Source: Crocosphaera subtropica ATCC 51142 (GTDB taxonomy: Bacteria > Cyanobacteriota > Cyanobacteriia > Cyanobacteriales > Microcystaceae). Taken from it: a stretch of 10,244 bases of DNA. Shown in pieces: positions 1 through 10,244 of this stretch (positions within the stretch are counted from its first letter, which is position 1; each line of letters begins with the position of its first letter). Location of the stretch: NCBI RefSeq assembly GCF_000017845.1, contig NC_010543.1, forward strand, positions 1-10,244, in the 5' to 3' direction. Below the pieces are notes generated by a model that saw only the letters and a program-made list of their open reading frames with translations, did no database searches and had not been told where the DNA came from. The position numbers and the translations under genes are program-made.

Positions 1-21
1 TCAAGAATGGGGATGAGTGGG
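1..21. repeat. Right half of a ~60-bp direct repeat (copy A) split across the window ends; the intact second copy is at 2231-2291
   Basis: 1-21 tcaagaatggggatgagtggg matches 2271-2291 at 20/21 positions. The left half of copy A is 10206-10244. The segment overlaps the last six codons and the stop of the recombinase gene. Confidence 0.8.
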
Positions 22-657
22 AGATGGTGTGGAGTTATCTTGGAGGGGTTGAGGATCACGAAAGCTACTTTTCCCGATATATGACAAACTCGATAAAGAC
101 GCGATCGCGCCTTTGACTTGATCTGGTTTGACTTCCAGGTAGGCATGGAGTTGGGTGAGGTTGTGATGGCCGCTGATTTCGGCGATGACTCGGAAGGGGA
201 TGTTAGCGTCGCTCATTTGGGTCAGGGCGGTGCGTCGGAAGCTGTGGGTGCTGACTCCTTCTAGTCCGATGGAACGACAGGCTTTACGGAGGATCAGGGA
301 GGCACTGTCGGGGTGAAGGTGGCCTTTGTTCCAACGTCCAGGGAAGAGGTATTCGTTCTCTGAATTGGGTCTATATTGCCCTAGAAGGTGTCTTAAATCC
401 TCTGAGGTAGGAATTGTTCGGCTGGCTAGTTTACCCTTGCTGTTGCCCTTTCTGATGGTCATGTAGGGTCGGACGGTTCCGAGGCGATCATATGCGTCGG
501 CAGTGAGTTGAGTGACGGCTTCGTTAATTCGACAAGCGGTATAGAGGCAAAAGCCGAATAGAGTGCGATCTCGTTGGGTTTTAAGTCCTTGGTTGAAGAG
601 GAGGTAAATTTCTTCAGGGGTAAGGATTTTAGCTTTGCCGTGCCGTTCTCGTTTCAT
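1..657 (-). CDS. Tyrosine recombinase / phage-integrase family, catalytic domain only (218 aa)
   Basis: ATG at 657-655 and TGA at 3-1. Catalytic residues are readable: Arg in TACRINEA, H-x-x-R in THSFRRT, His in SGHHN, Tyr in HAYLEV. The first catalytic Arg is at residue ~43, so the usual ~100-aa N-terminal core-binding domain is absent. The gene lies 18 bp downstream of, and co-oriented with, the 676-1170 gene. Confidence 0.9.
   Translation of the reverse strand: MKRERHGKAKILTPEEIYLLFNQGLKTQRDRTLFGFCLYTACRINEAVTQLTADAYDRLGTVRPYMTIRKGNSKGKLASRTIPTSEDLRHLLGQYRPNSENEYLFPGRWNKGHLHPDSASLILRKACRSIGLEGVSTHSFRRTALTQMSDANIPFRVIAEISGHHNLTQLHAYLEVKPDQVKGAIASLSSLSYIGKSSFRDPQPLQDNSTPSPTHPHS
101..108. 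repeat. HIP1 octamer GCGATCGC (cyanobacterial highly iterated palindrome), single copy
   Basis: Exact GCGATCGC read at 101-108. It is used only as a taxonomic hint. Confidence 0.6.
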
Positions 658-675
658 GGCTGGTGTTTAAAGTAA

Positions 676-1170
676 TTATTCTGGTTGATCGGATTTAGTG
701 GCGTTTTCAACGGCTTTTAAGTGTCTTTCTTTCAAGTCTCTGCGTCTTTGGTCATCTTCTTCTCGGCGGTAGTCGTTGAGGTTTTTAACTTTGCCTTTCC
801 AGCCGTAGTAGGGATTTAATCGAAAAGCATAGGAGCGTCCAACTTTGGGACCTCTGAGAATAATCCCTTTCTCTTCAAGAACAGAAATAGCCCTAGAAAC
901 ATTAGGCTTTTTCATCTCAAGCTTTTCTGAAATTTCATTTTGAGTGACTTGAATCCAGTTTTCAAAGTCGAGACGGGATAGCAAAAGTAAAAGAACCCTA
1001 TAAGTTTCACCTTTAAGGTCTTTATCAGTGGCTAGGAGTTCTAATGCTTCTTGACTATTCATGACCCAACCCGTTGAATAAGGATTCTGCTTAACTCCAC
1101 AATAAACTACTACTCCATCTAAAACTTCGCCTGTGTCTTGATCTACCGAGGCTATATTTCTACGTTTCAT
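676..1170 (-). CDS. Winged-helix DNA-binding protein, RepL-like (replication/maintenance) or recombination regulator
   Basis: I prefer the ATG at 1170-1168 (MKRRNIAS...), which has GGAGAG 5 nt upstream, over the TTG at 1185 used by the ORF track. The pattern GWVMNSQEALELL...YRVLLLLLSRLDFENWIQVTQNEISEKLEMKKPNVSRAISVLEEKGIILR...YAFRLNPYYGWKG fits a RepL/MarR-type winged helix. The C-terminus is basic and acidic. Confidence 0.7.
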   Translation of the reverse strand: MKRRNIASVDQDTGEVLDGVVVYCGVKQNPYSTGWVMNSQEALELLATDKDLKGETYRVLLLLLSRLDFENWIQVTQNEISEKLEMKKPNVSRAISVLEEKGIILRGPKVGRSYAFRLNPYYGWKGKVKNLNDYRREEDDQRRRDLKERHLKAVENATKSDQPE

Positions 1171-1187
1171 TAGGCTCTCCAACAAAT

Positions 1188-1228
1188 AGTTATCATATAT
1201 GATAATTGAGTTATCATATATGATAACT
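1188..1228. promoter_or_regulatory. Two tandem palindromic operator sites overlapping a sigma70-like promoter for the 1170->1 operon
   Basis: AGTTATCATATATGATAACT at 1209-1228 is a perfect 20-bp palindrome. 1188-1207 agttatcatatatgataatt matches it at 18/20, with a perfect 16-bp core TTATCATATATGATAA at 1190-1205. The two centres are 21 bp apart. On the minus strand, TTGAAA (1241-1236), a 17-nt spacer and TATGAT (1218-1213) place the -10 inside the distal palindrome. Confidence 0.6.
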
Positions 1229-1465
1229 ATCCAATTTTCAAACCCTTATGTAGAGCCACTCATAAGTAGGTTCCTTTATGTCTCTTGTAATAAAAATCTA
1301 TAAGCTGTGCTTATCAATGGGGGTGTAATCCGAACTGGACAAAGCTCTTAAGAGATTTTAACTAAAATTAATAATATTTTTAGATTTACCTAGAGAATTA
1401 GTGTTTATTATTACAGCATTACATTATTAAAAAAAGAATTGTGAATTGTAAGGAGTTAATTAATT

Positions 1466-2113
1466 ATGAAAGTATCAAATTTCAAAAAGCCATTAATTTA
1501 TTTAATTTTATCCGTAACTTTAGTTAACATATTTGCTGATAAAGCTGATGCTTTTAAGTTAGAACTTAAAAGAGTCGGTGAATGGGATCAAATGATTTTT
1601 AATCCTTTCACGGGTAATAAAATTGGAACAATTACAGTACCTCACTTTAGGTTAGAAAAAATAGAAATTCAGTTAGGTCTTAATAATACAGGAAAAGTTT
1701 TTCTAGATAAAGGAGTATTAGCAAACAACTTTTTAGAAGATTTAGGTGAAGGAGTTATTCCAGTTACAATGGATGGTCAAGAAATTGCATTTGATAATAC
1801 CATGTTTCCCGATATTCCAGGATCTGGATTTACAACAGATACTAATAACGGAACTAATTTTTTAATAACTTTTGATGAGCCTTTTACGGAACCAGTAGGA
1901 TCAATTGTAGATGTTTCAGATATGAACATTTTAATATCAACTCCTTTAAATGTTTTTGATACTTCTTTAGTTGAAGGAAGTGTTTTTAACAGTGCAATGA
2001 CGGATAGTGAACCTGCTGAAATAGTTTCTACACCTGAAAAGTCTGTATCTTCTATAACTTTATTGAGCTTATTAGGAGTAGGAATGTTTTTGAAAAAGAA
2101 AGTAAATGTATAA
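1466..2113 (+). CDS. Secreted protein with a PEP-CTERM-like C-terminal sorting signal (215 aa)
   Basis: AAGGAG at 1450-1455 lies 10 nt before the ATG. The N-terminal signal peptide is LIYLILSVTLVNIFADKADA/FK. The C-terminus is TPEKSVSS + hydrophobic ITLLSLLGVGMFL + KKK. The gene is visibly more AT-rich than the integrase operon. Confidence 0.75.
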   Translation: MKVSNFKKPLIYLILSVTLVNIFADKADAFKLELKRVGEWDQMIFNPFTGNKIGTITVPHFRLEKIEIQLGLNNTGKVFLDKGVLANNFLEDLGEGVIPVTMDGQEIAFDNTMFPDIPGSGFTTDTNNGTNFLITFDEPFTEPVGSIVDVSDMNILISTPLNVFDTSLVEGSVFNSAMTDSEPAEIVSTPEKSVSSITLLSLLGVGMFLKKKVNV

Positions 2114-2150
2114 AAAGCTTGGAATGGTTGTATATCCTATATACCTGTTG

Positions 2151-2182
2151 CTCTACACTGAGTATGAATACTTAGTGTAGAG
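2151..2182 (+). terminator. Strong stem-loop between the convergent genes (possible terminator, no T-tract)
   Basis: ctctacactgagtat (2151-2165), loop ga, atacttagtgtagag (2168-2182). This is a 15-bp stem with one G:U-type position. No U-run follows, so intrinsic-terminator function is uncertain. Confidence 0.4.
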
Positions 2183-2230
2183 ACGATTTAAGCAGCCCAC
2201 CAGGGGGGCAGTTAGCGCAGGGGGTAGTGA

Positions 2231-2291
2231 AGAAATAATGCGACGATAGGAGCAACGATCTTGCTTGTCTTCAAGAATTGGGATGAGTGGG
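2231..2291. repeat. Copy B of the ~60-bp direct repeat (candidate att/recombination site)
   Basis: agaaataa (2231-2238) equals 10206-10213. tgcgacgataggagcaacgatctt (2239-2262) is identical to 10217-10240. tcaagaattgggatgagtggg (2271-2291) matches 1-21 at 20/21. The copies differ by a 3-nt and a 4-nt indel. Copy B sits in the intergenic space between the convergent PEP-CTERM genes. Confidence 0.85.
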
Positions 2292-2320
2292 GAATAATGT
2301 GCCTTGAGTATAAGTGATCA

Positions 2321-3493
2321 CTAATTATTGTGTTTATGTTTAGGAATCAAACTTATAACTAAAATTGAGAAAGTGAAAAGACTTAATAAGGAAGAAGACT
2401 CTGGAACGGTTACTGAGGTAATGCGCCAAATTTTTCCTGCTCCGGCTCGATTTGTTCCATCTGAAACAAACAAACCTCCACCAAGTATGCCTTCAGTATC
2501 AAATGCTACATCAATAGCATCTATATTTGTCAAAAACGGAATTAGAGTTCCATCAGGTTTTAGGGTAAAAAGTGTTCCATCGTCATTCCCGAAACTACTG
2601 CCTTCTGTAGCAACAAAAAGATCAGAACCAAACACTCCACCTGGGCCTAGTTCAATAAGTTCCAAACCGCTCAGACCATCAACTAAAAGAGTAGAAGTTC
2701 CATCTAAATTAACTAAAAAAAGTGCATCATTCATTGTTGCCTCTCCATCTGTTTGCAATGAAAAGGTTCCTGTAACAAACCCTCCCCCTTCTTGCCATTG
2801 TCCAAGATCATTAATAGAAGCATAAGCGGCTGGTTTATGGCGATGAATAAATGTAGTTAAAGTTGGCTCTGGAAAAATAGCTGAAGACACAGAAGCAAAA
2901 ACATTACTACTTCCATCTGAATTAATTTGAAGAATATCTCTTGAGGCTTGAGAATCTGATCCAATTGAGCCATCAGTAGCGAATATAACACCACCAGGTC
3001 CATAAGTTAATACAGGAGGACCAAAAGGTGATGATGAAATATTTGAAGCAAAAGTTGTGAGAGTCCCGTCAGAAAGCAAACGGCGAATTCTTTGATCACG
3101 CGGCTCTGAAATCAGAATACCGTCTCCGTATGAACCTCTCGCAAAAAGCATTGATTCTGCGCTATTTAACTGATCTGTAACTATAGAAATAGTTCCTGCG
3201 TGATCTATTCTCATTAAACGATTACCACCAGGTAAAAAACTGGGTCCAGGGGTTACATACAATCCTGCTGGAAAACCATTTTCTCCACTAGAAATTGTTA
3301 ATTGAAATGCGTCTAGATCTGGATCTATAGATGCCAAATCTACAAAAAGCTCAACTTTAAAACGGTCAGAATTTACTAAAGTAGGAACAGCTTTAGCATT
3401 AGGTATAGAACCCATAGTTAAACTAATAAAAACACTAATAAAACTAGGTAAAGAAGATAATATTTTTCGAGAAAAGTTATCAAATAAAAACAT
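2321..3493 (-). CDS. Secreted beta-propeller-like repeat protein with a PEP-CTERM-like C-terminus (390 aa)
   Basis: Signal peptide ...SVFISLTMGSIPNAKA/VP. Recurrent (S/L/D)DG(T/S)xxxF/L strand motifs are present (SDGTLTTFAS, SDGSSNVFAS, LDGTSTLLVD, DDGTLFTLKPDGTLIPFL). The C-terminus is VPESSS + hydrophobic LLSLFTFSILVISLI + PKHKH. Confidence 0.8.
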   Translation of the reverse strand: MFLFDNFSRKILSSLPSFISVFISLTMGSIPNAKAVPTLVNSDRFKVELFVDLASIDPDLDAFQLTISSGENGFPAGLYVTPGPSFLPGGNRLMRIDHAGTISIVTDQLNSAESMLFARGSYGDGILISEPRDQRIRRLLSDGTLTTFASNISSSPFGPPVLTYGPGGVIFATDGSIGSDSQASRDILQINSDGSSNVFASVSSAIFPEPTLTTFIHRHKPAAYASINDLGQWQEGGGFVTGTFSLQTDGEATMNDALFLVNLDGTSTLLVDGLSGLELIELGPGGVFGSDLFVATEGSSFGNDDGTLFTLKPDGTLIPFLTNIDAIDVAFDTEGILGGGLFVSDGTNRAGAGKIWRITSVTVPESSSLLSLFTFSILVISLIPKHKHNN

Positions 3494-3595
3494 ATTTTTA
3501 TTTAAAAAAATTTACTGCTACAAAATTAGTATAGTTAAAAAATAAAAAAATTAAATTAAATTAAGATTAAGTAATGATGCCTATGGTTAAGTGGT

Positions 3596-5986
3596 TTAAA
3601 GTGAAAATCCTCTACCTCGACTACGTTTCTGCTCTTGTTCTCTTTCCCATCTTAATTGAGCCATAAGAGCCTCATTCCAATCTTTATGATGGTTTGGCAC
3701 TACTCGACTAAGTTGAGCCGTAGAAGGAGCAATATTATTAAGCTCCTGAGCGATTCCCTGACCAGCTTCATCCTTATCAGTAGCGATAATAATTTGTCCC
3801 CCTTGGCTGTGGATCTTCTCAAAGGCTGTTTTAAGTAGGGTTTTCTGCTTTTCTGATAACGTGCCACCGGTGGCCATATAACGGGTGTTGGCATCAGGGA
3901 ATAGTTGATGATAGCTTAAGCAGTCTAGAGGGCTTTCACAGATGACTAATTTAGTATCAGTAGAGGCTGGTTTAGAGAACCATAGCCCTTTACTGCCACC
4001 TTTAGAGAAGCCTTTAAACTGTTGGTTACGAATTTCATAGCCACAGATACCCTCACGGTCATGGTAAGGAAAAATGACATTATTACGGCTGTCAGTGTAG
4101 ATTTTGTCTTGAAATTTAGGATTACTGGTGGTTTGTGGGTTGATGCCTCGTTGGGTAAGATAAGGATGGTTTGTAATGGGTTTAAAGCGTTCAAATTGAG
4201 TGAGTATGTTGTGTCTATCTGGGGTGCTTGGGGTTAGTTTAGGGGTAGATTTTTTAGGGGTGTAAGTAGAAGAATAGGTATCATTTAACCAGGGTCTAAG
4301 TTCTTTTCTAACTTCTCCTAAGTTGAGGTTTCTTTTATTCTGAATAAAGTCAATGATTGAGCCACTATCTCTATCATCTTTAACGGATGAGTAAAAATAG
4401 TGTCCATCGGCTTGATTAAGACCAACGAGAATCTTATCCCCTTGGTTATCTTTGAGGACAAGACAATTAACTGAACTTTTTTTCTTATCTATAGTATAAC
4501 CTTGTGTTTGAGCATAATCAGCTAGGTTAATTTGTTTGCATCGATGCAACTCTTCAGCTTGTTTATCTGCTATTTTTCTAAGACGTTCATGATGTCTTGA
4601 TAAGCGTTTTCGAGTTCGGTTATCCTGTTCGATAAGTTGTTGATGGTGCTGTTGAGTGAGTTGATTTGCTTGGTTAAGTTGGTCATTTGTTCGTTCTGTT
4701 GTTGCTTGTCCTTCTCGTATTGAATGGCAAAGTTCTTGAAGGTTTCTAGTAGCTCTTTTTCTAGTTGGTTCATCGTCTTCTTCTACAGCTTTAAGCAGGG
4801 CTTGCCTTTGCATTTCCAATTGGTCTTGTGATTGCTGTTGGGAGGTAATATTATGAATTTCCCTTGACTGGTTTGATAAAGTTCTATCCCCCAAGTCTTC
4901 TGCTTGAGTTGATTGAGGGTGATTCTGTTGGTTTGAATTTGTTGAAATTGTTTTGTTAAATATTGAGTCATCCCCCAACTGCCTATCAAGGAACCTGTTA
5001 AGAGGCTGATAAGAATTGTCCCTGGCAGTAGTGAAGTCCATTTCAGATGGTTTTTGATATTCTGTTGAGTAGCTTGAATATCGTTGGTGATGGTAGTCTC
5101 TACGTTTTGACACATTTTCTGACAGTTTTTCTTGAGCTTGTTTAATTCTTGATTGATTATCTGCTCTTGTTGCTGTCTGTCCTGTTGCCGTTTCCGTTGT
5201 AGGTTCTTGTCCAAGTCGCCAAGATGCACTATAAATTCCTCCTTTTAATCTAATGCGTTTATTTAGGTCATCATGGGTAACGGTGATGTAATCTTCCCCT
5301 TGCCTTGTAATGGTAAAGGCTGCGTCTTCTAGGGTGGTAATGATATCGTTACGGTTTTGGATCTGTCCTTCTTCTATATAAGCCGTTAAGTAATTGGTGA
5401 TGATCTTCCGAGCATCGTCCCGGCTGATGGGGGTTTGTCCAGCAAGTTCTAAGCGATGGTTTTGGGCATTAATTAAGGCTTGATGACCAGGATAATAGGT
5501 TCTAGAGCGTTCTGGGTCATCGGGGCTTGCCCATCCTTGAGAAGTGTTCCAAAGGTCACGCCAGGGTCTAAAGTAACTTTCCCATCCAGGGGGAGCAATA
5601 TTTAAGCTTTTACCAGTGGTTAATTCAACTCTAGGGGTAACAAAATGGAGTTCTACCCTATCATTGCCTGTGTGGGTATGCCTTACCCATAAAATGTCAT
5701 ACTGATCCTTATCTAATCCAGCAAAGGCGACGTTTTCAAAGGAGTTAATAAGGGCTTGTTGTTGTTCATTGTTAGGAGCATCTTCAGGAGCAAAGCTAAG
5801 AACGCCACTACGGTATTTATGTTTGAAGTTTAGGGAATCAATTAAGTTAATGGTTTGTTGAGGATCTCCTTTAATTAGTTCGGGTTGAGGGTCACGAATG
5901 ATACCTTTAGCATCAGTTTCTTTAAGGATATATTCAACTGGGGCTTTACCTTTTCCCGTCCCACGGTCAAAGAACTTAAGTAACAT
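3596..5986 (-). CDS. MOB relaxase (ColE1 MbeA-like, MobA/VirD2 relaxase domain) fused to a DUF3991 + Toprim primase-like C-terminal domain
   Basis: I prefer the ATG at 5986-5984 (MLLKFFDRGTGKGKAPVEYIL...), which has GAGGA 9 nt upstream and an 11-bp overlap with the mobC stop; the ORF-track start at 6040 runs through mobC. The N-terminus parallels MbeA as I recall it: KFxxRGxGxGxxPVxYxL with Tyr19, YRSGVLSF, and WVRHTHTGNDRVELHFVTP as the metal-binding motif. Next comes a Q/S/N-rich linker. The C-terminal part has a DUF3991-like segment (NLADYAQTQGYTID...GSIIDFIQ) and a Toprim domain (LVICESPLD ... IIIATDKDEAG at ~3761-3790). Confidence 0.9.
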   Translation of the reverse strand: MLLKFFDRGTGKGKAPVEYILKETDAKGIIRDPQPELIKGDPQQTINLIDSLNFKHKYRSGVLSFAPEDAPNNEQQQALINSFENVAFAGLDKDQYDILWVRHTHTGNDRVELHFVTPRVELTTGKSLNIAPPGWESYFRPWRDLWNTSQGWASPDDPERSRTYYPGHQALINAQNHRLELAGQTPISRDDARKIITNYLTAYIEEGQIQNRNDIITTLEDAAFTITRQGEDYITVTHDDLNKRIRLKGGIYSASWRLGQEPTTETATGQTATRADNQSRIKQAQEKLSENVSKRRDYHHQRYSSYSTEYQKPSEMDFTTARDNSYQPLNRFLDRQLGDDSIFNKTISTNSNQQNHPQSTQAEDLGDRTLSNQSREIHNITSQQQSQDQLEMQRQALLKAVEEDDEPTRKRATRNLQELCHSIREGQATTERTNDQLNQANQLTQQHHQQLIEQDNRTRKRLSRHHERLRKIADKQAEELHRCKQINLADYAQTQGYTIDKKKSSVNCLVLKDNQGDKILVGLNQADGHYFYSSVKDDRDSGSIIDFIQNKRNLNLGEVRKELRPWLNDTYSSTYTPKKSTPKLTPSTPDRHNILTQFERFKPITNHPYLTQRGINPQTTSNPKFQDKIYTDSRNNVIFPYHDREGICGYEIRNQQFKGFSKGGSKGLWFSKPASTDTKLVICESPLDCLSYHQLFPDANTRYMATGGTLSEKQKTLLKTAFEKIHSQGGQIIIATDKDEAGQGIAQELNNIAPSTAQLSRVVPNHHKDWNEALMAQLRWEREQEQKRSRGRGFSL
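4570..4773 (-). CDS. Candidate overprinted gene inside the relaxase gene: 67-aa coiled-coil protein, MbeD/MobD-like
   Basis: ATG at 4773-4771, 9 nt after the TAG of the 4783-5229 ORF and in the same frame as it. That frame differs from the relaxase frame. The heptad-like sequence is MNQLEKELLETFKNFAIQYEKDKQQQNEQMTNLTKQINSLNSTINNLSNRITELENAYQ. Confidence 0.45.
   Translation of the reverse strand: MNQLEKELLETFKNFAIQYEKDKQQQNEQMTNLTKQINSLNSTINNLSNRITELENAYQDIMNVLEK
4783..5229 (-). CDS. Candidate overprinted gene inside the relaxase gene: 148-aa membrane-anchored protein, MobB/MbeB-like accessory
   Basis: GTG start at 5229-5227, preceded by a perfect AAGGAGG (5244-5238) with an 8-nt spacer. The frame differs from the relaxase frame. 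The product has a charged, Q-rich coiled-coil N-terminus, one clear TM helix (WTSLLPGTILISLLTGSLIGSWGM) and a small C-terminal domain (WGIELYQTSQGKFIILPP...WKCKGKPCLKL). Confidence 0.55.
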   Translation of the reverse strand: MHLGDLDKNLQRKRQQDRQQQEQIINQELNKLKKNCQKMCQNVETTITNDIQATQQNIKNHLKWTSLLPGTILISLLTGSLIGSWGMTQYLTKQFQQIQTNRITLNQLKQKTWGIELYQTSQGKFIILPPNSNHKTNWKCKGKPCLKL

Positions 5987-6335
5987 CTTCGTTGTCCTCT
6001 GAATTAGGAGAAGGTTTATCAGATTTAACTGATAGTTCATGTAGGGTTTCTTGGATCAGTCTAAGAGCTTGAATAACCTCAATAGCTTCGGCGGTTTGTT
6101 TGTAGGTATTAGCCCATTTAGCGATTTGGTTTAGATTATTGCCAATGCGAGCGATCTGCCTAGTTTGTTCTTGAACTAATGAACTATTTGAAGCTGTCCA
6201 AGTTCGAGTTTTGGACATAGCTTGTCGGATAAGATTAGAGAGAGTAAGACCTGAGAGTACGGCCTTTTCTTGCCAAGCTAATTTTTCAGAAGGAGTTACC
6301 CGAATTGTTAGATTAATGTTACGTTTCTCAGTCAT
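5976..6335 (-). CDS. mobC: MobC/MbeC-family relaxosome accessory protein (ribbon-helix-helix N-terminus)
   Basis: I prefer the ATG at 6335-6333 (MTEKRNINLTIRVTPSEKLAWQEKAVLSGLTLSNLIRQA...). The longer track ORF to 6434 reads through G5/C5 repeat DNA. The RHH motif plus the IARIGNNLNQIAKWAN motif are typical of MobC. The stop overlaps the relaxase start, suggesting translational coupling. Confidence 0.85.
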   Translation of the reverse strand: MTEKRNINLTIRVTPSEKLAWQEKAVLSGLTLSNLIRQAMSKTRTWTASNSSLVQEQTRQIARIGNNLNQIAKWANTYKQTAEAIEVIQALRLIQETLHELSVKSDKPSPNSEDNEDVT

Positions 6336-6350
6336 AATAAAAAGAGAAGA

Positions 6351-6648
6351 ACATTCCTTTCCCATCTGCCCGAAGGGGGTTTTAGGGGGTTTCCCCCTAA
6401 ACAGCAGCCCCATGTTAGAATCTTTGTGATTCAACTATAACATAAGTACATGGGGTCTGCTGGCTTCCGCTTCACGGAAGGGACTACACTGAAAGGCTAT
6501 CTAGGGGTAATGGGGTTACAGTAATAAGATAATTATAAGGTATTTTCCTAATCGGAAAATAGTTATTTGTGAATGGGGGATAATCCCCCAAACCCCCTTA
6601 CTGGGGGACACCCCCAGACCCCCATTAGGGCAGATGGGAAAGGAATGT
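6351..6648. other. Candidate oriT / highly structured element bounded by perfect 21-bp inverted repeats
   Basis: acattcctttcccatctgccc (6351-6371) is the exact reverse complement of 6628-6648. Internal hairpins: tttaggggg-ttt-ccccctaaa (6381-6401), cttccg-cttca-cggaag (6464-6480), tattttcc-taatc-ggaaaata (6541-6561), ggggg-ataat-ccccc (6575-6589), ctggggg-aca-cccccag (6601-6617). The element lies immediately upstream of mobC-relaxase. Confidence 0.55.
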
Positions 6649-6772
6649 CTTTGTTTGATTAATTGGTTTAATATTGATAGTAGTTATTATGGAGGTGGGA
6701 TTATAGAAAGGCAAACATTGGGGGCTTTAGAGAGGGCTTATTTGTCACTTCAGGATATAGTGACTAATTTAT

Positions 6773-6931
6773 ATGGTGAAGCGACTGTTTGAAATAGGAA
6801 AATTAACGGTAGGACAAGCAGCAGAATTGGCGGGTTATTCTAAACCGACTTTTATCGAGTTACTTGGTAAATTAGGGGTTCCTGTGATTGATTATCCCCC
6901 CCAAGAATTAGAAGAGGAAAAAATTACTTAA
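6773..6931 (+). CDS. Small ORF (52 aa), UPF0175-family antitoxin-like; possibly N-terminally truncated
   Basis: This ORF is not in the supplied track, probably because it is short. The translation is MVKRLFEIGKLTVGQAAELAGYSKPTFIELLGKLGVPVIDYPPQELEEEKIT*. The G-x-AAELAG...F..LL...G(I/V)P....EL.EE pattern is typical of UPF0175 C-terminal halves. There is no obvious SD, an in-frame stop lies 9 nt upstream, and no PIN-type partner gene follows. Confidence 0.4.
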   Translation: MVKRLFEIGKLTVGQAAELAGYSKPTFIELLGKLGVPVIDYPPQELEEEKIT

Positions 6932-7087
6932 TTTATCTTTTTATAAAATAAGTATAACATTATAACGTGATTTTAGTTACAGTGTTATTAACTTTGTTAT
7001 ACACTTATAAATTAAATGGTTAATAATCACGATAATTAGAGTTGACTATAACTACAGTTTAGTTTTTATTTAAAACGGTGTTTTTAA

Positions 7088-7124
7088 ATGTGTCCAACAT
7101 TGTACACTATTATGTTAGACACAT
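7088..7124. repeat. 13-bp inverted repeat carrying the TGTC(C/T)AACA motif, downstream of the 7203-7490 gene
   Basis: atgtgtccaacat (7088-7100) and atgttagacacat (7112-7124) are reverse complements at 12/13, with an 11-nt spacer. They share their core with the sites at 8279-8331 and 8566-8577. Confidence 0.5.
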
Positions 7125-7202
7125 AATAGTAAAAATTGGCTATTGATGGGGAATAGTACCCCAGACAACCGTTATGTAGATGAAAAAAGGGTGGTGTTTT
7201 TT

Positions 7203-7490
7203 CTAAAAGGGGTCAATAGCATAGGTTAATAATTCCTTAGTGATTCGGTTAAAGTCTTTGATTGACTGAGCTTGATCTAATTGATTTAATAGAGCTTGTC
7301 TATCGTCTTCTTTGGGGAAGTAATGCCCTTTAAAACTTGTCCAGTGTTTGAGATACCCTCTAATTAAATCAGCATCTTCTTGGTTAAAGTTTGAGGAGTT
7401 ACTAAATAGCTTTTTGACGGCGTTAGGTAATTGACCGCTTTGTTCGTTTCTCCAATAAACTAAGGTATGGTCTGGATAGTTATAAAACAT
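7203..7490 (-). CDS. Hypothetical protein (95 aa), second gene of the RHH-GIY-YIG operon
   Basis: ATG at 7490, with AGAGG ~10 nt upstream and a 33-bp gap after the upstream gene. I recognise no motif in MFYNYPDHTLVYWRNEQSGQLPNAVKK...ELLTYAIDPF. Confidence 0.65.
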   Translation of the reverse strand: MFYNYPDHTLVYWRNEQSGQLPNAVKKLFSNSSNFNQEDADLIRGYLKHWTSFKGHYFPKEDDRQALLNQLDQAQSIKDFNRITKELLTYAIDPF

Positions 7491-7523
7491 TTTATTTTGC
7501 CTCTGATTGTGTTAGTTAATAGC

Positions 7524-8279
7524 TTAGGATTGAAAGAATTTAGACAAGCTGCTTCCTTCTTCAGTGGGTCGATATTTCCAACCGCTTAACTCTTCAAGGT
7601 ACTCAATGGGGTCAACTTCTAATAAGGAAGCTGCATCCTCTAAGTCCTTAACTGTATTGAAACCGAAATGCTTGGCTAAACCACTGCGAGTAACGCCTTC
7701 TCGTAAGTCTTCTGATGAGGGGTTCCATTCTTGTAACCCTCGTTTGGGTAAGTAGTTTTGAAGCTTCTTAACTACCTTCTCTGACCCAAGTTGAACCAAA
7801 ACTGATAAGGTATCATTGAACTGCTTTTTAAGGGTGGTCAATTCCTGTTCTAGTTTCTCAAATTGGTCAGAGGTTACTAATGCTTTGGTTTGAATTGTCT
7901 CAGTGGGTTCTGATTGGAACTCTTCTATAGTTTGGTTTAGGTTATCAACAGAGTCAAAAGTAAAGTAACCTATACGGGAATCCATAGAGGACTCTATAAA
8001 GTATTGATACTTGTGATGACTATTCCAACGAGTTCTTAAGTTATCTGCTTTGCCAATGTAGAGAAGTTGATGGTCTAAAGTATAAACAAAATAGATTCCA
8101 GGTTGAGAGGGTAATTTTACCCGTTCAGTGATATGAACCGAGGGTATAGAACTTAGTAACATCCCGATAATTACATCGGTCTTATTTTGTCGAGTCTGTT
8201 CTACTTGTTCATCAATACCCTTCATTAACTCAGAGGGACATCTGATAGTAAAGCTTGATGTGGATTGAGTTTTAGCCAT
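7524..8279 (-). CDS. Ribbon-helix-helix + GIY-YIG nuclease-domain protein with an unknown C-terminal domain
   Basis: I prefer the ATG at 8279-8277 (MAKTQSTSS...); the ORF track starts at the TTG at 8288. RHH-like N-terminus: FTIRCPSELMKGIDEQVEQTRQNKTDVIIGMLLSS. GIY-YIG motif: PGIYFVYTLDHQLLYIGKADNLRTRWNSHH. This is followed by a coiled-coil stretch and a ~90-aa C-terminal region. Confidence 0.8.
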   Translation of the reverse strand: MAKTQSTSSFTIRCPSELMKGIDEQVEQTRQNKTDVIIGMLLSSIPSVHITERVKLPSQPGIYFVYTLDHQLLYIGKADNLRTRWNSHHKYQYFIESSMDSRIGYFTFDSVDNLNQTIEEFQSEPTETIQTKALVTSDQFEKLEQELTTLKKQFNDTLSVLVQLGSEKVVKKLQNYLPKRGLQEWNPSSEDLREGVTRSGLAKHFGFNTVKDLEDAASLLEVDPIEYLEELSGWKYRPTEEGSSLSKFFQS

Positions 8280-8331
8280 GTTAGACAACGTTAATTATTT
8301 TAACTTGTATTGTAATCTAATTTGTCTAACA
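8279..8331. promoter_or_regulatory. Inverted TTGTCTAACA sites bracketing the promoter/start region of the RHH-GIY-YIG gene (candidate RHH operator)
   Basis: tgttagacaa (8279-8288, overlapping the start codon) is the exact reverse complement of ttgtctaaca (8322-8331), with a 33-bp spacer. The spacer contains TACAAT and TAAAAT -10-like hexamers on the minus strand. Confidence 0.5.
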
Positions 8332-8565
8332 AATGTAAGTGAAATAACCTAATTATACTTAACTGATACAAATAGTAAAATTAACTAACTACTTATAGTT
8401 ACGCTGCACATATAAACGTATAACACTGTTAAACAATATGTATATTATACTGTTTAATTTAGGAGTATTTAAAAATATAAGTAAGCACGAGTAAACTGTC
8501 TTTACTTAATAAAGTAAATTACATAAGACAGTGTTGTGTTGTTAAATATATAGTGTAGTTGATTA

Positions 8566-8577
8566 TGTCTAACAAAT
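8566..8577. repeat. Additional direct copy of the TGTCTAACAAAT 12-mer
   Basis: tgtctaacaaat at 8566-8577 is identical to 8323-8334. Confidence 0.5.
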
Positions 8578-8884
8578 ATAGTTATTTATTCAGAAAGCTG
8601 GTTAAACTTGAGAGTTAATATAAGAGTTTAGCTAATTCACTTAATAAATTAATTAGAGTATTATCTTAATAAGAATGCACTGTATAATAAATAAAATTAT
8701 AAATACTTTCAGCTTAGACTGTAACTGTATGTTAAGTAGTTAATTTGTTATTGTTATTATTTGTATTTTTCTGATAGAGTAAAAATAATGATCCTCTATG
8801 AAAAGCATTAATATCTTTTCTAAACTACTTAAATGTTTAGATTTTAGGTTCATAAATTAAAATTTGATATTAAATCTTCACAAA

Positions 8885-9370
8885 ATGTTAAATCGTTTAA
8901 ATTGGCCTGAAATTGTTGGTGGAATTATTGGAAGTATTTTAACAGTTTTTGGTTTATATCTATTTGATAAAATTGGTTTAATTAGTTCAGAAATTGTTAT
9001 TCCATCAAAGGCAATAATTCCTTTTAATTCAAATGAATGTCCTAGTGGTTGGTCAGATTATAGTCAAAGTGCTGGTCGTTTTATTATCGGTGTTGGTCAA
9101 GGAAGTAATCTTACAGAGAGAAGATTGGGAGATTTAGGTGGAACAGAAAAACATATGTTAACTGTTGATGAGATACCACAACATTATCATAACTACGAAG
9201 ATTATCATTATTATGATCAAGAGATAGGTGATCCAAATTATCAAACTCCTCAGGGTGATGAAACTGGTATATTAAAATATAGAGAAGGACAAACTACCGA
9301 AATTGGCGGGGGAAAACCTCATGAGAATATACCACCTTTTGTTGCCTTAAAATATTGTGAAAAAGAATAA
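8885..9370 (+). CDS. Membrane-anchored phage-tail-collar-domain (MdpB/COG4675-like) protein
   Basis: I prefer the ATG at 8885; the ORF track starts at the TTG at 8864. N-terminal TM helix: WPEIVGGIIGSILTVFGLYLF. Tail-collar-like core: AIIPFNSNECPSGW...GRFIIGVGQGSNLTERRLGDLGGTEKHMLTVDEIPQHYH...GGGKPHENIPPFVALKYC. Confidence 0.7.
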   Translation: MLNRLNWPEIVGGIIGSILTVFGLYLFDKIGLISSEIVIPSKAIIPFNSNECPSGWSDYSQSAGRFIIGVGQGSNLTERRLGDLGGTEKHMLTVDEIPQHYHNYEDYHYYDQEIGDPNYQTPQGDETGILKYREGQTTEIGGGKPHENIPPFVALKYCEKE

Positions 9371-9425
9371 TAATAAAAATAATATTTATCACGCTAAACT
9401 GTAATCCCTAGAAGGGACATTTGAT

Positions 9426-9944
9426 TTAGGTTTCTGGCTCTGTTTCTTTACCTTTAAGCATTACCATTAGACGGCGTTTAACATCGCCGTTGTCTTCTTT
9501 GCGGGCTAAAGTCTTAGTAGTAAAAGCTGCATATTTCTTGCTAGTATTCCAGCTTTTCCAAACTTCATCTGGATCTAAACAGTAAGCATAAACTGTTCCT
9601 GCTCCTAACTTAATTCGTAAGACAATATTGTTTTCATCAAGCCATTTGGTTCCTCTTTGAACTGAGCGAATACTAATATCTAATTCATCAGCTAGTAGTT
9701 GTTGAGAAGCAACAACAGCACCCGTACCAGGTTCAATGTGTTTGGCTAAAAACATATAGATTCTGGCAGCTAATGGATATTCTCCAAGAATACCTATAAC
9801 TCTATCAAAGCCTTTTGGATACATTTGAACAAAGTTTTTGTTTTTTTTTCTATCTTTATTTTTCTGTTCTTCGTTTAACCGTTCATCGACTAATTGTATG
9901 AAACGTTGTAAACGATCTTCTGTTGTTGCAGCGGTCTTATCCAT
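9426..9944 (-). CDS. Second RepL-like winged-helix protein (candidate plasmid replication/maintenance protein)
   Basis: ATG at 9944-9942. The sequence NFVQMYPKGFDRVIGILGEYPLAARIYMFLAKHIEPGTGAVVASQQLLADELDISIRSVQRGTKWLDENNIVLRIKLGAGTVYAYCLDPDEVWK has the same architecture as the 676-1170 product. Confidence 0.7.
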   Translation of the reverse strand: MDKTAATTEDRLQRFIQLVDERLNEEQKNKDRKKNKNFVQMYPKGFDRVIGILGEYPLAARIYMFLAKHIEPGTGAVVASQQLLADELDISIRSVQRGTKWLDENNIVLRIKLGAGTVYAYCLDPDEVWKSWNTSKKYAAFTTKTLARKEDNGDVKRRLMVMLKGKETEPET

Positions 9945-9986
9945 CTTAGAAATTCATTTGTCCGGTGTACCTGCCATTTCAGTCAA

Positions 9987-10017
9987 ATTATACGACGGAT
10001 GTGTCGTAATTTACGAC
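9987..10017 (-). promoter_or_regulatory. Putative promoter with TACGAC/GTCGTA operator repeats for the 9426-9944 gene
   Basis: Perfect TATAAT on the minus strand (9992-9987). It is embedded in tacgac (9991-9996), gtcgta (10003-10008) and tacgac (10012-10017), which form two overlapping palindromic sites. No convincing -35 was found. Confidence 0.4.
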
Positions 10018-10036
10018 AAATTTTTTCACCATTTAT

Positions 10037-10070
10037 CTAAGTATTTTTACTTACACTAAGTATTTTTACT
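10037..10070. repeat. Two direct 15-bp repeats CTAAGTATTTTTACT (iteron-like)
   Basis: 10037-10051 and 10056-10070 are identical, with a 19-bp period. They lie upstream of the putative promoter of the second RepL-like gene. Confidence 0.6.
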
Positions 10071-10073
10071 CAT

Positions 10074-10111
10074 GACACGCTAATGGCAGGTAGACACGCC
10101 ATTAGCGTGTC
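10074..10111. repeat. Perfect 14-bp-stem palindrome/hairpin
   Basis: gacacgctaatggc (10074-10087) and gccattagcgtgtc (10098-10111) are exact reverse complements, with the 10-nt loop aggtagacac. Confidence 0.65.
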
Positions 10112-10205
10112 AGGGGGTCAAGGGCTGAAACCTGCATGAAATAAGGATCTTTTATTTTTTCCTTCTTATCTCAGTTAATGAAGGGGTCTGGGGAACACTT
10201 TTCCC

Positions 10206-10244
10206 AGAAATAAAACTGCGACGATAGGAGCAACGATCTTCCTT
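10206..10244. repeat. Left half of direct repeat copy A (continues at 1-21 if the molecule is circular)
   Basis: agaaataa + aac + tgcgacgataggagcaacgatctt + cctt. The 24-mer at 10217-10240 is identical to 2239-2262. Confidence 0.85.

Follow-up and report, generated by a model that had tools for sequence, protein, structure and literature searches.

A putative ColE1-type transfer origin bounded by inverted repeats on a plasmid of Crocosphaera subtropica ATCC 51142

A 10,244-bp stretch of DNA from Crocosphaera subtropica ATCC 51142 (contig NC_010543.1, positions 1 to 10,244; hereafter the window) carries a 298-bp element (6351-6648) that is bounded by a perfect inverted repeat and lies directly upstream of the genes for the relaxosome accessory protein MobC and a relaxase. 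This region is very probably an origin of transfer (oriT), with a predicted nick between G6463 and C6464. The whole explanation that we favor, and that we regard as likely, is that the element is the oriT of a mobilization module of the ColE1 superfamily (MOBHEN within MOBP) in which repeated sequence units serve as sites for relaxosome proteins. We are more tentative about one part of it, that the arms of the repeat are binding sites for these proteins, and give this even chances at best. An oriT of a MOBHEN/MOBP module is an element of a kind already known. New, as far as the searched literature shows, are the extension of such an oriT to the cyanobacteria together with a relaxase-Toprim fusion, its inverted-repeat-bounded architecture built from a dispersed core unit, and its occurrence as an orphan origin on RepL mini-plasmids.

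The mob module and the nick motif

The two genes next to the element are homologous to mobilization genes of ColE1 and stand in the same order, which is also the order given in PMC5703827; this places the module in the ColE1 superfamily. MobC resembles ColE1 MbeC (31% identity, 97 aa, E 4e-9), and the N-terminus of the 800-aa relaxase shows homology to ColE1 MbeA (32% identity, 290 aa, E 4e-45). The N-terminal match of the relaxase to the MobA/VirD2 profile is weak, and DUF3991 and Toprim domains occupy its C-terminus. Its N-terminal 256 aa match 3,689 plasmid records, mainly small enterobacterial mbe-type plasmids, and its catalytic tyrosine motif, PVEY, aligns with PVDY of MbeA. No meaningful match to the relaxase domain came from a sequence search of the PDB. 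Judged by homology, the mob module is a distant member of the ColE1 (MOBHEN/MOBP) mobilization superfamily, fused to a primase-like domain. MOBHEN oriTs are located upstream of mobC (PMC5703827); this, together with the homology of both proteins, backs the suggestion of an earlier note on this sequence that the position directly upstream of mobC and the relaxase is that of an oriT. No mbeB- or mbeD-like gene is annotated as overlapping the relaxase gene (3596-5986), which contains a 148-aa internal open reading frame (ORF) at 4783-5229 (-).

The nick site of ColE1 lies within the oriT sequence CTGGCTTA (PMC5703827), and the ColE1 record CP077348.1 contains ACTGGCTTA. In the window, GCTGGCTT is present once, with the heptamer CTGGCTT at 6460-6466; the earlier note had likened this heptamer to the ColE1 nic region, and correctly so. 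The octamer CTGGCTTC (6460-6467, + strand) is identical to CTGGCTTA at 7 of 8 positions, and close relatives of the element have exactly CTGGCTTA. The surroundings of the motif agree as well. GCTGGCTT is antisense to mobC, being on the + strand while mobC is on the - strand, at a distance of 128 nt from where mobC starts. It makes up the 3' foot of a long hairpin, hairpin B (CAGCAG...CTGCTG), and another, hairpin A, starts at the very next base. The nick motif of ColE1 is likewise antisense to the mob genes and forms the 3' foot of a CCAGT...ACTGG stem.

The motif is also conserved. In 36 distinct related elements we found GCTGGCTT or a one-mismatch variant, in many cases exactly CTGGCTTA. Its distance from an 18-nt core sequence in the mobC-side arm (described below) is 84-91 nt in most of these elements and about 52 nt in a subgroup with a short hairpin. 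A nick motif that is nearly invariant at a fixed distance, across a spacer of unrelated sequence, is more than the coincidence of a 7-mer. Taken together, the likeness to ColE1, the strand, the position relative to the hairpin and the conservation lead us to predict cleavage of the + strand between G6463 and C6464. The coordinates of these and other features are given in Table 1.

Table 1. Features of the window, and positions of type-2 core copies on related contigs
Feature	Position	Strand	Description
Predicted nick region	6459..6466	+	GCTGGCTT; ColE1-type nick motif; predicted cleavage between G6463 and C6464
Proximal (mobC-side) arm	6351..6371	+	Holds 18-nt core TTCCTTTCCCATCTGCCC (6354-6371); perfect inverted repeat with 6628-6648
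Distal arm	6628..6648	-	Core unit again, in the opposite orientation to that of the proximal arm
Proximal G module	6375..6401	+	G5 run 6375-6379 and hairpin C, TTTAGGGGG-TTT-CCCCCTAAA (6381-6401)
Hairpin B	6402..6462	+	CAGCAG-CCCCATGT ... ACATGGGG-T-CTGCTG; long stem-loop; the nick octamer includes its 3' foot
Hairpin A	6464..6480	+	CTTCCG-CTTCA-CGGAAG; its first base is the first base 3' of the predicted nick
Distal-half hairpin	6541..6561	+	TATTTTCC-TAATC-GGAAAATA; many relatives have GAGCGATYAGCGAG there
Two distal G modules	6574..6623	+	Hairpins 6574-6590 and 6601-6617; C5 runs 6593-6597 and 6619-6623
mobC	5976..6335	-	Ribbon-helix-helix (RHH) relaxosome accessory protein; Pfam NikA-like E 3.4e-16, MobC E 1.2e-13
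Relaxase	3596..5986	-	MbeA-like N-terminus fused to DUF3991 and Toprim (primase-like); ORF 3596-6040, likely start 5986
Short tyrosine recombinase	1-657		218 aa
RepL/MarR-like protein	676-1185		One of two different such proteins
RepL/MarR-like protein	9426-9944		One of two different such proteins
RHH-GIY-YIG protein	7524-8288		
Type-2 core copies, L012	5305, 8621, 9752		
Type-2 core copies, L092	3399, 10321, 14230, 18089, 15720		
Type-2 core copies, L094/L095			5 copies in 11.9 kb

A related arrangement is found far outside the cyanobacteria. In Gemmatimonadota and Acidobacteriota, CCAGCC followed by a hairpin and GGCTGGCTT lies 91-150 nt upstream of mobC, in antisense, in 18 of 58 loci, compared with 4 of 58 for a control region. 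These loci are the chromosomal mobC homologues from the two phyla among the matches listed, with MobC proteins 40-52% identical to that of the window. GGCTGG/CTTA motifs (the slash marking the presumed cut) near these mobC genes suggest, at the level of sequence, many ColE1-type mobilizable islands in both phyla. Chromosomal mobC homologues are very numerous in metagenome-assembled genomes of Gemmatimonadota (Longimicrobiales, Palauibacter) and Acidobacteriota, with several per genome (L013-L088, e.g., L013, L016, L020 and L050; L-numbers are labels of the related loci and contigs that were compared with the window).

Architecture of the element and its core repeat

The segment 6351-6371, ACATTCCTTTCCCATCTGCCC, recurs as its exact reverse complement at 6628-6648, with 256 bp between the two. 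This perfect 21-bp inverted repeat, already described in the earlier note, was confirmed, and it stands well above chance: 200 dinucleotide-preserving shuffles of the whole window gave no perfect inverted repeat longer than 14 bp with arms at most about 540 bp apart. Beyond the 21 bp the symmetry continues imperfectly, also as described there, with 59-nt arms that are 76% complementary. Modules of the form GGGGG-N-GGGGG-N-CCCCC are seen on either side, a single one at the left and a pair at the right. Four G5 runs, which might form a G-quadruplex, lie on the - strand in the distal half, and the proximal side has only two. Folded as single-stranded DNA, 6340-6660 reaches -86.5 kcal/mol on the + strand (z = -12.0) and -82.9 kcal/mol on the - strand (z = -12.9), and the predicted fold closes exactly on the stem formed by the 21-nt arms. 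At least six hairpins, where at least five had been claimed, lie within the element (6381-6401, 6402-6462, 6464-6480, 6541-6561, 6574-6590 and 6601-6617). Scans of the window with Rfam (E up to 1) and for tRNAs found no match.

In several of these hairpins the structure is better conserved than the sequence. Hairpin C, whose G module repeats AGGGGGTTT at 10-bp spacing, has its stem kept in all relatives, with compensatory changes at the innermost pair. Of 24 distinct relatives, 19 form hairpin B at the corresponding position, closed by C(AGC)/(GCT)G, and the mean z is -4.9. Its stem sequences are unrelated among these relatives, and the approximately 50 nt between core and nick motif have no sequence in common; its conservation was scored by folding each sequence separately, the stems being too diverged to align (RNAalifold/MAFFT did not recover hairpin B). 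Hairpin A is swapped in relatives for CTTAGC-TTYC-GCTAAG or CTTCCC-TKAC-GGGAAG at the same position, so that the structure is kept while the sequence changes. The double distal G module is also present in L009, L011, L100, L104, L155, L190, L126 and L160.

Each arm is part of a unit of about 45 nt in which the 18-nt core TTCCTTTCCCATCTGCCC is followed, after 3-4 nt, by a G5 run and then by a G5-loop-C5 hairpin. Among 24 diverse relatives, 14 of the 18 core positions never vary. Of 24 distinct mobC loci in cyanobacteria, 20 have the core immediately before mobC and 3 more have a diverged form of it; the non-cyanobacterial relatives lack the core. In the most distant clade (MobC 47-53% identical), a diverged core, TTCTTTTTCCTACTGCC, accompanies an altered nick motif, CTAGCTTA; this joint change suggests that the site evolves together with its mob proteins. 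The order upstream of mobC is itself conserved: proximal core, G5 hairpin C, hairpin B and nick motif, with hairpin A in the mobC-linked clade. It is found in Rippkaea orientalis pP880103, in Crocosphaera contigs and in plasmids from mat metagenomes (MobC 60-74% identical), and in a diverged form in Chondrocystis plasmid6 (MobC 48% identical). Several of these syntenic relatives have no distal arm.

Two forms of the unit can be told apart, a P form that is followed by hairpin B and the nick motif, and a D form that is followed by AACAAATAA and often GAGCGATYAGCGAG. In 22 distinct elements of 232-422 bp, some from lineages quite unrelated to that of the window, a P unit and an inverted D unit bracket the nick as in the window. 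Among Crocosphaera-type relatives that have the distal arm, the 18-bp core is perfect and the flanking bases differ. The distal arm is missing from Rippkaea pP880103, L008, L012 and L096; in L004 it is absent from that position, and a core copy is found downstream of the relaxase gene instead. In L103, L107, L120, L130, L134, L140, L162, L167, L169, L175, L193 and L199, the stretch from distal unit to nick contains AACAAATAA and then the conserved motif GAGCGATYAGCGAG(AC). The counterpart of this motif in the window is the hairpin TTTTCCGATTAGGAAAA, which contains TAGCGA, a candidate CS-6 motif of the kind present in ssoA single-strand origins.

The unit is dispersed well beyond oriT. An 18-mer scan of metagenomes (116 stretches), together with the other loci compared, brought the count of units to 112, with 47 unrelated contexts in the outer flanks; many of the related contigs come from the JAAUX-JAAUY assemblies. 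Genuine units are confined to plasmid-sized contigs of at most 22 kb, and the metagenome contigs scanned, which do not include the host chromosome itself, showed no chromosomal copies. Within the window the two arms are the only copies of the core. Conservation ends a few bases beyond the cores. A scan of viral contigs with a 14-mer gave only single matches, as expected by chance, and a literature search for the core sequence returned unrelated primer matches only.

Some copies of the core have a context of their own, which we call type 2: TCTTC-TTTCCCATCTGCCC-CC(C)GCCGGAGGCGAA. In this context the core is followed by a small hairpin, CGCC-GGA-GGCG, with the compensatory variants CGTC/GACG and TGTC/GACA. 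Some related plasmids have 4-6 such copies, mostly behind genes and in gene-sense orientation; others precede repL or lie within the 3' end of mobC. In one case, about 35 nt before the start of the relaxase gene, the copy supplies the final mobC codons (SFPSAPPPEAN*). Nearly all of them share the polarity of the distal arm on the predicted transferred strand. Tight palindromes of the core (reverse-complement core abutting core) or inverted pairs 47-60 nt apart, with no oriT between them, occur in L133 (about 1150-1195), L146 (2609-2657), L113 (10230) and L163 (4469). Inverted pairing of the core is thus a recurring theme at several spacings.

The nick element is not always accompanied by mob genes, and 15 of the 36 elements do not adjoin mobC. 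The circles L169 (1,682 bp) and L199 (2,194 bp), which are clean by their 111/111 identical terminal overlaps, and other small contigs (L148, L162, L134, L193, L103, L120 and L175) encode only a RepL-like protein, similar to that of window ORF 676-1185, in addition to the nick element; they have neither mobC nor relaxase. The element also adjoins mobC on plasmids with a different replicon (CyRepA1/DUF3854), which indicates that it belongs to the mob system and not to RepL replication. The most plausible reading of the RepL mini-plasmids is that they carry an orphan oriT, and they are candidates for mobilization in trans.

The nearest relatives of this plasmid segment are Crocosphaera contigs and Rippkaea orientalis pP880103. 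In PLSDB, only two related plasmids were found, Rippkaea pP880103 and Chondrocystis plasmid6. Only the block 3595-6782 is common to L190, L100 and L009 at 90-93% identity; rearrangement of the remaining shared segments suggests that the plasmid family is a mosaic one. Beside the element, a 52-aa ORF at 6634-6792 (+) opens at the mirror ATG in the distal arm; its frame is lost in C. chwakensis (L011). The next ORF, at 6773-6931 (+), is antitoxin-like (UPF0175) and matches profile positions 27-72 of 75 only; no toxin partner was identified downstream. It is probably N-terminally truncated, or frameshifted relative to the 6634-6792 ORF.

Proposed mechanism and alternative explanations

We propose that the relaxase would nick the + strand between G6463 and C6464, in GCTGG/CTT; the cut would fall one base past the 3' end of hairpin B and directly before hairpin A. 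Transfer of the + strand, 5' to 3', would then lead away from mobC, so that the mob genes, the proximal arm and hairpins C and B would enter last, as the termination and recognition side. The units of about 45 nt may be sequence-specific sites for relaxosome proteins, with the RHH protein MobC on the G-rich repeats spaced 10 bp apart and either MobC or the relaxase on the core. One unit is always on the mobC side of the nick; in the lineage of the window a second, inverted unit closes the other side and brackets the nick region. Such a bracketed pair could be a self-contained oriT, usable also as an orphan oriT on RepL-only mini-plasmids. The inverted second unit may act through a protein-mediated duplex loop of about 270 bp that helps to melt the nick region, or, after transfer, pairing of the 21-nt arms may place the transferred strand's 5' and 3' ends side by side for religation.

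Several points weigh against this interpretation. What the computation shows is protein homology, a nick motif with its strand, position and conservation, conserved hairpins, and arms that belong to a repeat family. Cleavage, its strand and mobilization are all inferred from sequence, and so are the identity of the protein that binds the core and the contribution of the inverted pairing. The octamer CTGGCTTC of the window matches that of ColE1 at only 7 of 8 positions. Motif III of the relaxase is H-x7-E-x-H and not H-E-N (VRHTHTGNDRVELHF compared with VEHQDKG--RLELNF), so it lacks the motif for which MOBHEN is named; with the asparagine replaced by histidine, the relaxase is a relative of the MOBHEN family and not a canonical HEN member. 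Some intact-looking elements have a single core, the distal one missing in Rippkaea, L008 and L096 and the proximal one in L148 and L169. The inverted pairing is therefore not essential and provides enhancement at most. Finally, type-2 cores occur in places with no obvious role in oriT, a distribution that fits a plasmid-wide signal better than a purely relaxosomal site. It is conceivable, if on balance unlikely, that the 14-18-nt core (TTTCCCATCTGCCC) is indeed an undescribed plasmid-wide cis signal of small cyanobacterial plasmids and not merely a part of one oriT; it stands at either end of a portable oriT element and reappears where gene modules meet. In its most novel form, this idea would make the cores single-strand recognition sites for the relaxase-fused Toprim primase or for another transferred protein; in an alternative form, the cores would be crossover or recognition sites that move oriT and other modules between plasmids.

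The earlier note had offered two interpretations, an oriT or a miniature inverted-repeat transposable element (MITE) inserted in an oriT. Homology and comparative evidence strongly support the former, and the latter is not supported. As a mobile element, the 298-bp segment would be non-autonomous, either MITE-like or a cassette that travels by means of site-specific recombination, with the cores as recombination sites. It would carry or have invaded oriT, and the arms would be its terminal inverted repeats. Much of its appearance is in keeping with this: genuine terminal inverted repeats of 21 bp around a short non-coding interior of 256 bp, repeat-bounded versions and core units in many unrelated flanks, conservation that stops just outside the cores, tight core-core palindromes (L133, L146), and a short tyrosine recombinase on all larger plasmids. 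Even so, we find a mobile element improbable. The 22 distinct repeat-bounded elements have no consistent target-site duplication in their flanks. No empty site was found, and relatives that lack the distal arm keep an orthologous interior upstream of mobC; separation of mobC from its native promoter by an insertion is not supported. The nick-bearing half adjoins mobC in 20 of 20 cases, and in the lineage of the window the distal arm is followed by another 134 bp of conserved mob block, up to 6782. Among the contigs scanned, the restriction of genuine units to those of at most 22 kb also argues against it. Among related plasmids, homology breakpoints fall within 15 nt of core centers at 0.6%, compared with 1.1% at random positions; with no enrichment there, the cores were rejected as recombination crossover points. 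The suspicion that the element is multi-copy was right insofar as the arms are a dispersed unit of about 45 nt and the whole element is found in many plasmid contexts, including some without mob genes.

The arms could also belong to an invertible switch, in which the 218-aa tyrosine recombinase (1-657) would flip the 256-bp segment between them, as in the fimS and gut invertons, and so reverse the nick strand or a promoter; an inverted junction would read, for example, mobC flank and arm and then TAATGGGGGTCTGG. The sizes of the arms and interior match those of a fim-type switch, and the recombinase is on the same plasmid. Yet there is a single internal orientation in 7 of 7 Crocosphaera-type sequences (window, L009, L011, L100, L104, L155 and L190), the nick half faces mobC in all 20 mobC-linked elements, and repeat-bounded elements are found on mini-plasmids that have no recombinase, all of which makes a switch very improbable. 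Two draft contigs that end inside the element might have hinted at inversion, but their ends are not at the arm boundaries. These are L002 (unicellular cyanobacterium SU3) and L003 (C. chwakensis CCY0110), both of which end at position 1; a second CCY0110 contig, L011, overlaps L003 and completes the element. The contig ends are probably an assembly problem caused by hairpins and repeats.

A role in RNA is a further alternative, in favor of which the arms have perfect 21-nt complementarity. In a mobC-sense transcript begun before the distal arm, the distal core, rich in pyrimidines (ACAUUCCUUUCCCAUCUGCCC), would base-pair with GGGCAGAUGGGAAAGGAAUGU, a purine-rich sequence just 5' of mobC that includes an in-frame AUG, and would sequester the mobC translation start. 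This ATG, at 6363-6365 (-) inside the proximal core, is in frame with mobC (MGKECSSLFI-MTEK...) in the window and in several lineages and is a candidate for the true mobC start; gene callers start many mobC homologues there or further upstream, which gives predicted proteins of 129-158 aa. A promoter-like TTGCCT-17-CATAAT at 6714-6686 (-) points into the distal arm, and plasmids that lack the distal arm have a same-sense core copy at the 3' end of mobC, about 350 nt downstream. On the other hand, both cores are invariant on mini-plasmids without mobC, which is hard to reconcile with RNA pairing, and the AUG is missing from the diverged core of L090, L037 and L083. A promoter scan gave fewer sites than shuffles, and Rfam gave no match. 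No promoter has a fixed position beside the cores, and the idea that the core lies at +1 of promoters was rejected for lack of a fixed -10 position across the 47 flank contexts. Translational control of mobC by the arms is accordingly an improbable explanation.

Finally, the distal half and the dispersed cores may be single-strand priming sites (ssi) or single-strand origins (sso) on the transferred strand, used by the DUF3991-Toprim primase or by host enzymes to synthesize the complementary strand in the recipient, so that the element would be an oriT with an adjacent ssi or sso. The relaxase does have a primase-like Toprim domain. The distal unit and 12 of 13 non-proximal cores of mob plasmids point the same way on the putative transferred strand, where a hairpin precedes GGGCAGATGGGAAAG; some distal-type units stand by themselves, with no nick motif nearby, and plasmids of the window's group have RepL-type replicons. 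The strand bias, however, equals the gene-orientation bias of related plasmids, and the proximal copy, which is the most conserved, has the opposite polarity. The proposal is purely inferential, and we consider it rather unlikely.

Comparison with known systems and significance

The closest model for an oriT at 6351-6648 is the bom region of ColE1/pMB1 with MbeA and MbeC. Both systems have a homologous relaxase and an RHH accessory protein, with the accessory gene directly upstream of the relaxase gene, and in both the nick octamer, CTGGCTTA or a one-mismatch variant, is antisense to the mob genes and forms the 3' foot of a CCAGY...RCTGG stem. The closing geometry at the nick of ColE1, CCAGT...ACTGG/CTTA, is that of hairpin B. 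Further 5' of the nick, a G-rich repeat and a G/C hairpin can be seen in both (GTCGGGGCGCAGCCCTGAC in ColE1), a likeness that is a reading by eye. The differences are considerable. ColE1 has no counterpart of the 18-nt core or of the second, inverted unit, and its stem-loop at the nick is about 33 nt long, compared with about 60 nt for hairpin B. In ColE1, rop lies between oriT and the mob genes, whereas in the window oriT abuts mobC. The relaxase of the window is fused to DUF3991-Toprim, has H-E-H in motif III where that of ColE1 has H-E-N, and is not overlapped by mbeB or mbeD ORFs. Its host, unlike that of ColE1, is a cyanobacterium.

The IncU plasmid RA3 resembles the window in having a bicistronic operon of mobC and relaxase beside oriT, with a MobC that is an RHH protein with the LxxxGxNlNQiA motif. 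The operator bound by RA3 MobC lies in oriT/mobCp, just before mobC, and the protein stimulates transfer; by analogy, this may serve as a precedent for binding of MobC within the element described here. In RA3 this operator consists of one imperfect palindrome, placed between the -35 and -10 boxes. In contrast, the candidate sites in the window consist of an asymmetric 18-nt core and tandem G5 repeats with an inverted duplicate 256 bp away, and MobC binding to them is putative. Plasmids with an oriT only, mobilized in trans, are the subject of the pOriT concept (bioRxiv 10.1101/2024.01.30.577996). The nick element on RepL-only circles of 1.7-2.2 kb without mobC or relaxase is similar, and their mobilization in trans is putative; the copy in the window differs in that it adjoins its own cognate mob genes. 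MITEs and invertons resemble the element in their terminal inverted repeats (about 20 bp), in the structured, non-coding DNA between these (about 250 bp) and in having many copies in a community. Elements of the window type, however, have no target-site duplications, empty sites or orientation polymorphism, and their interior is a conserved oriT.

To our knowledge, the transfer origins of cyanobacterial plasmids are essentially uncharacterized. The element described here offers a precise and testable oriT for a widespread family of plasmids of the Crocosphaera/Cyanothece type and of microbial mats, and it extends the nick-site architecture of ColE1 to cyanobacteria and Gemmatimonadota. Plasmids of about 2 kb that have only RepL and the same origin, with no mob genes, become candidates for mobilization in trans. 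If the cores were sites for the Toprim domain, the relaxase-primase would have its own dispersed priming signals. The 18-nt core repeat provides a defined entry point to the organization of these mosaic plasmids, and the compact 300-bp origin, together with mobC and the relaxase, could serve in mobilizable vectors for marine nitrogen-fixing cyanobacteria.

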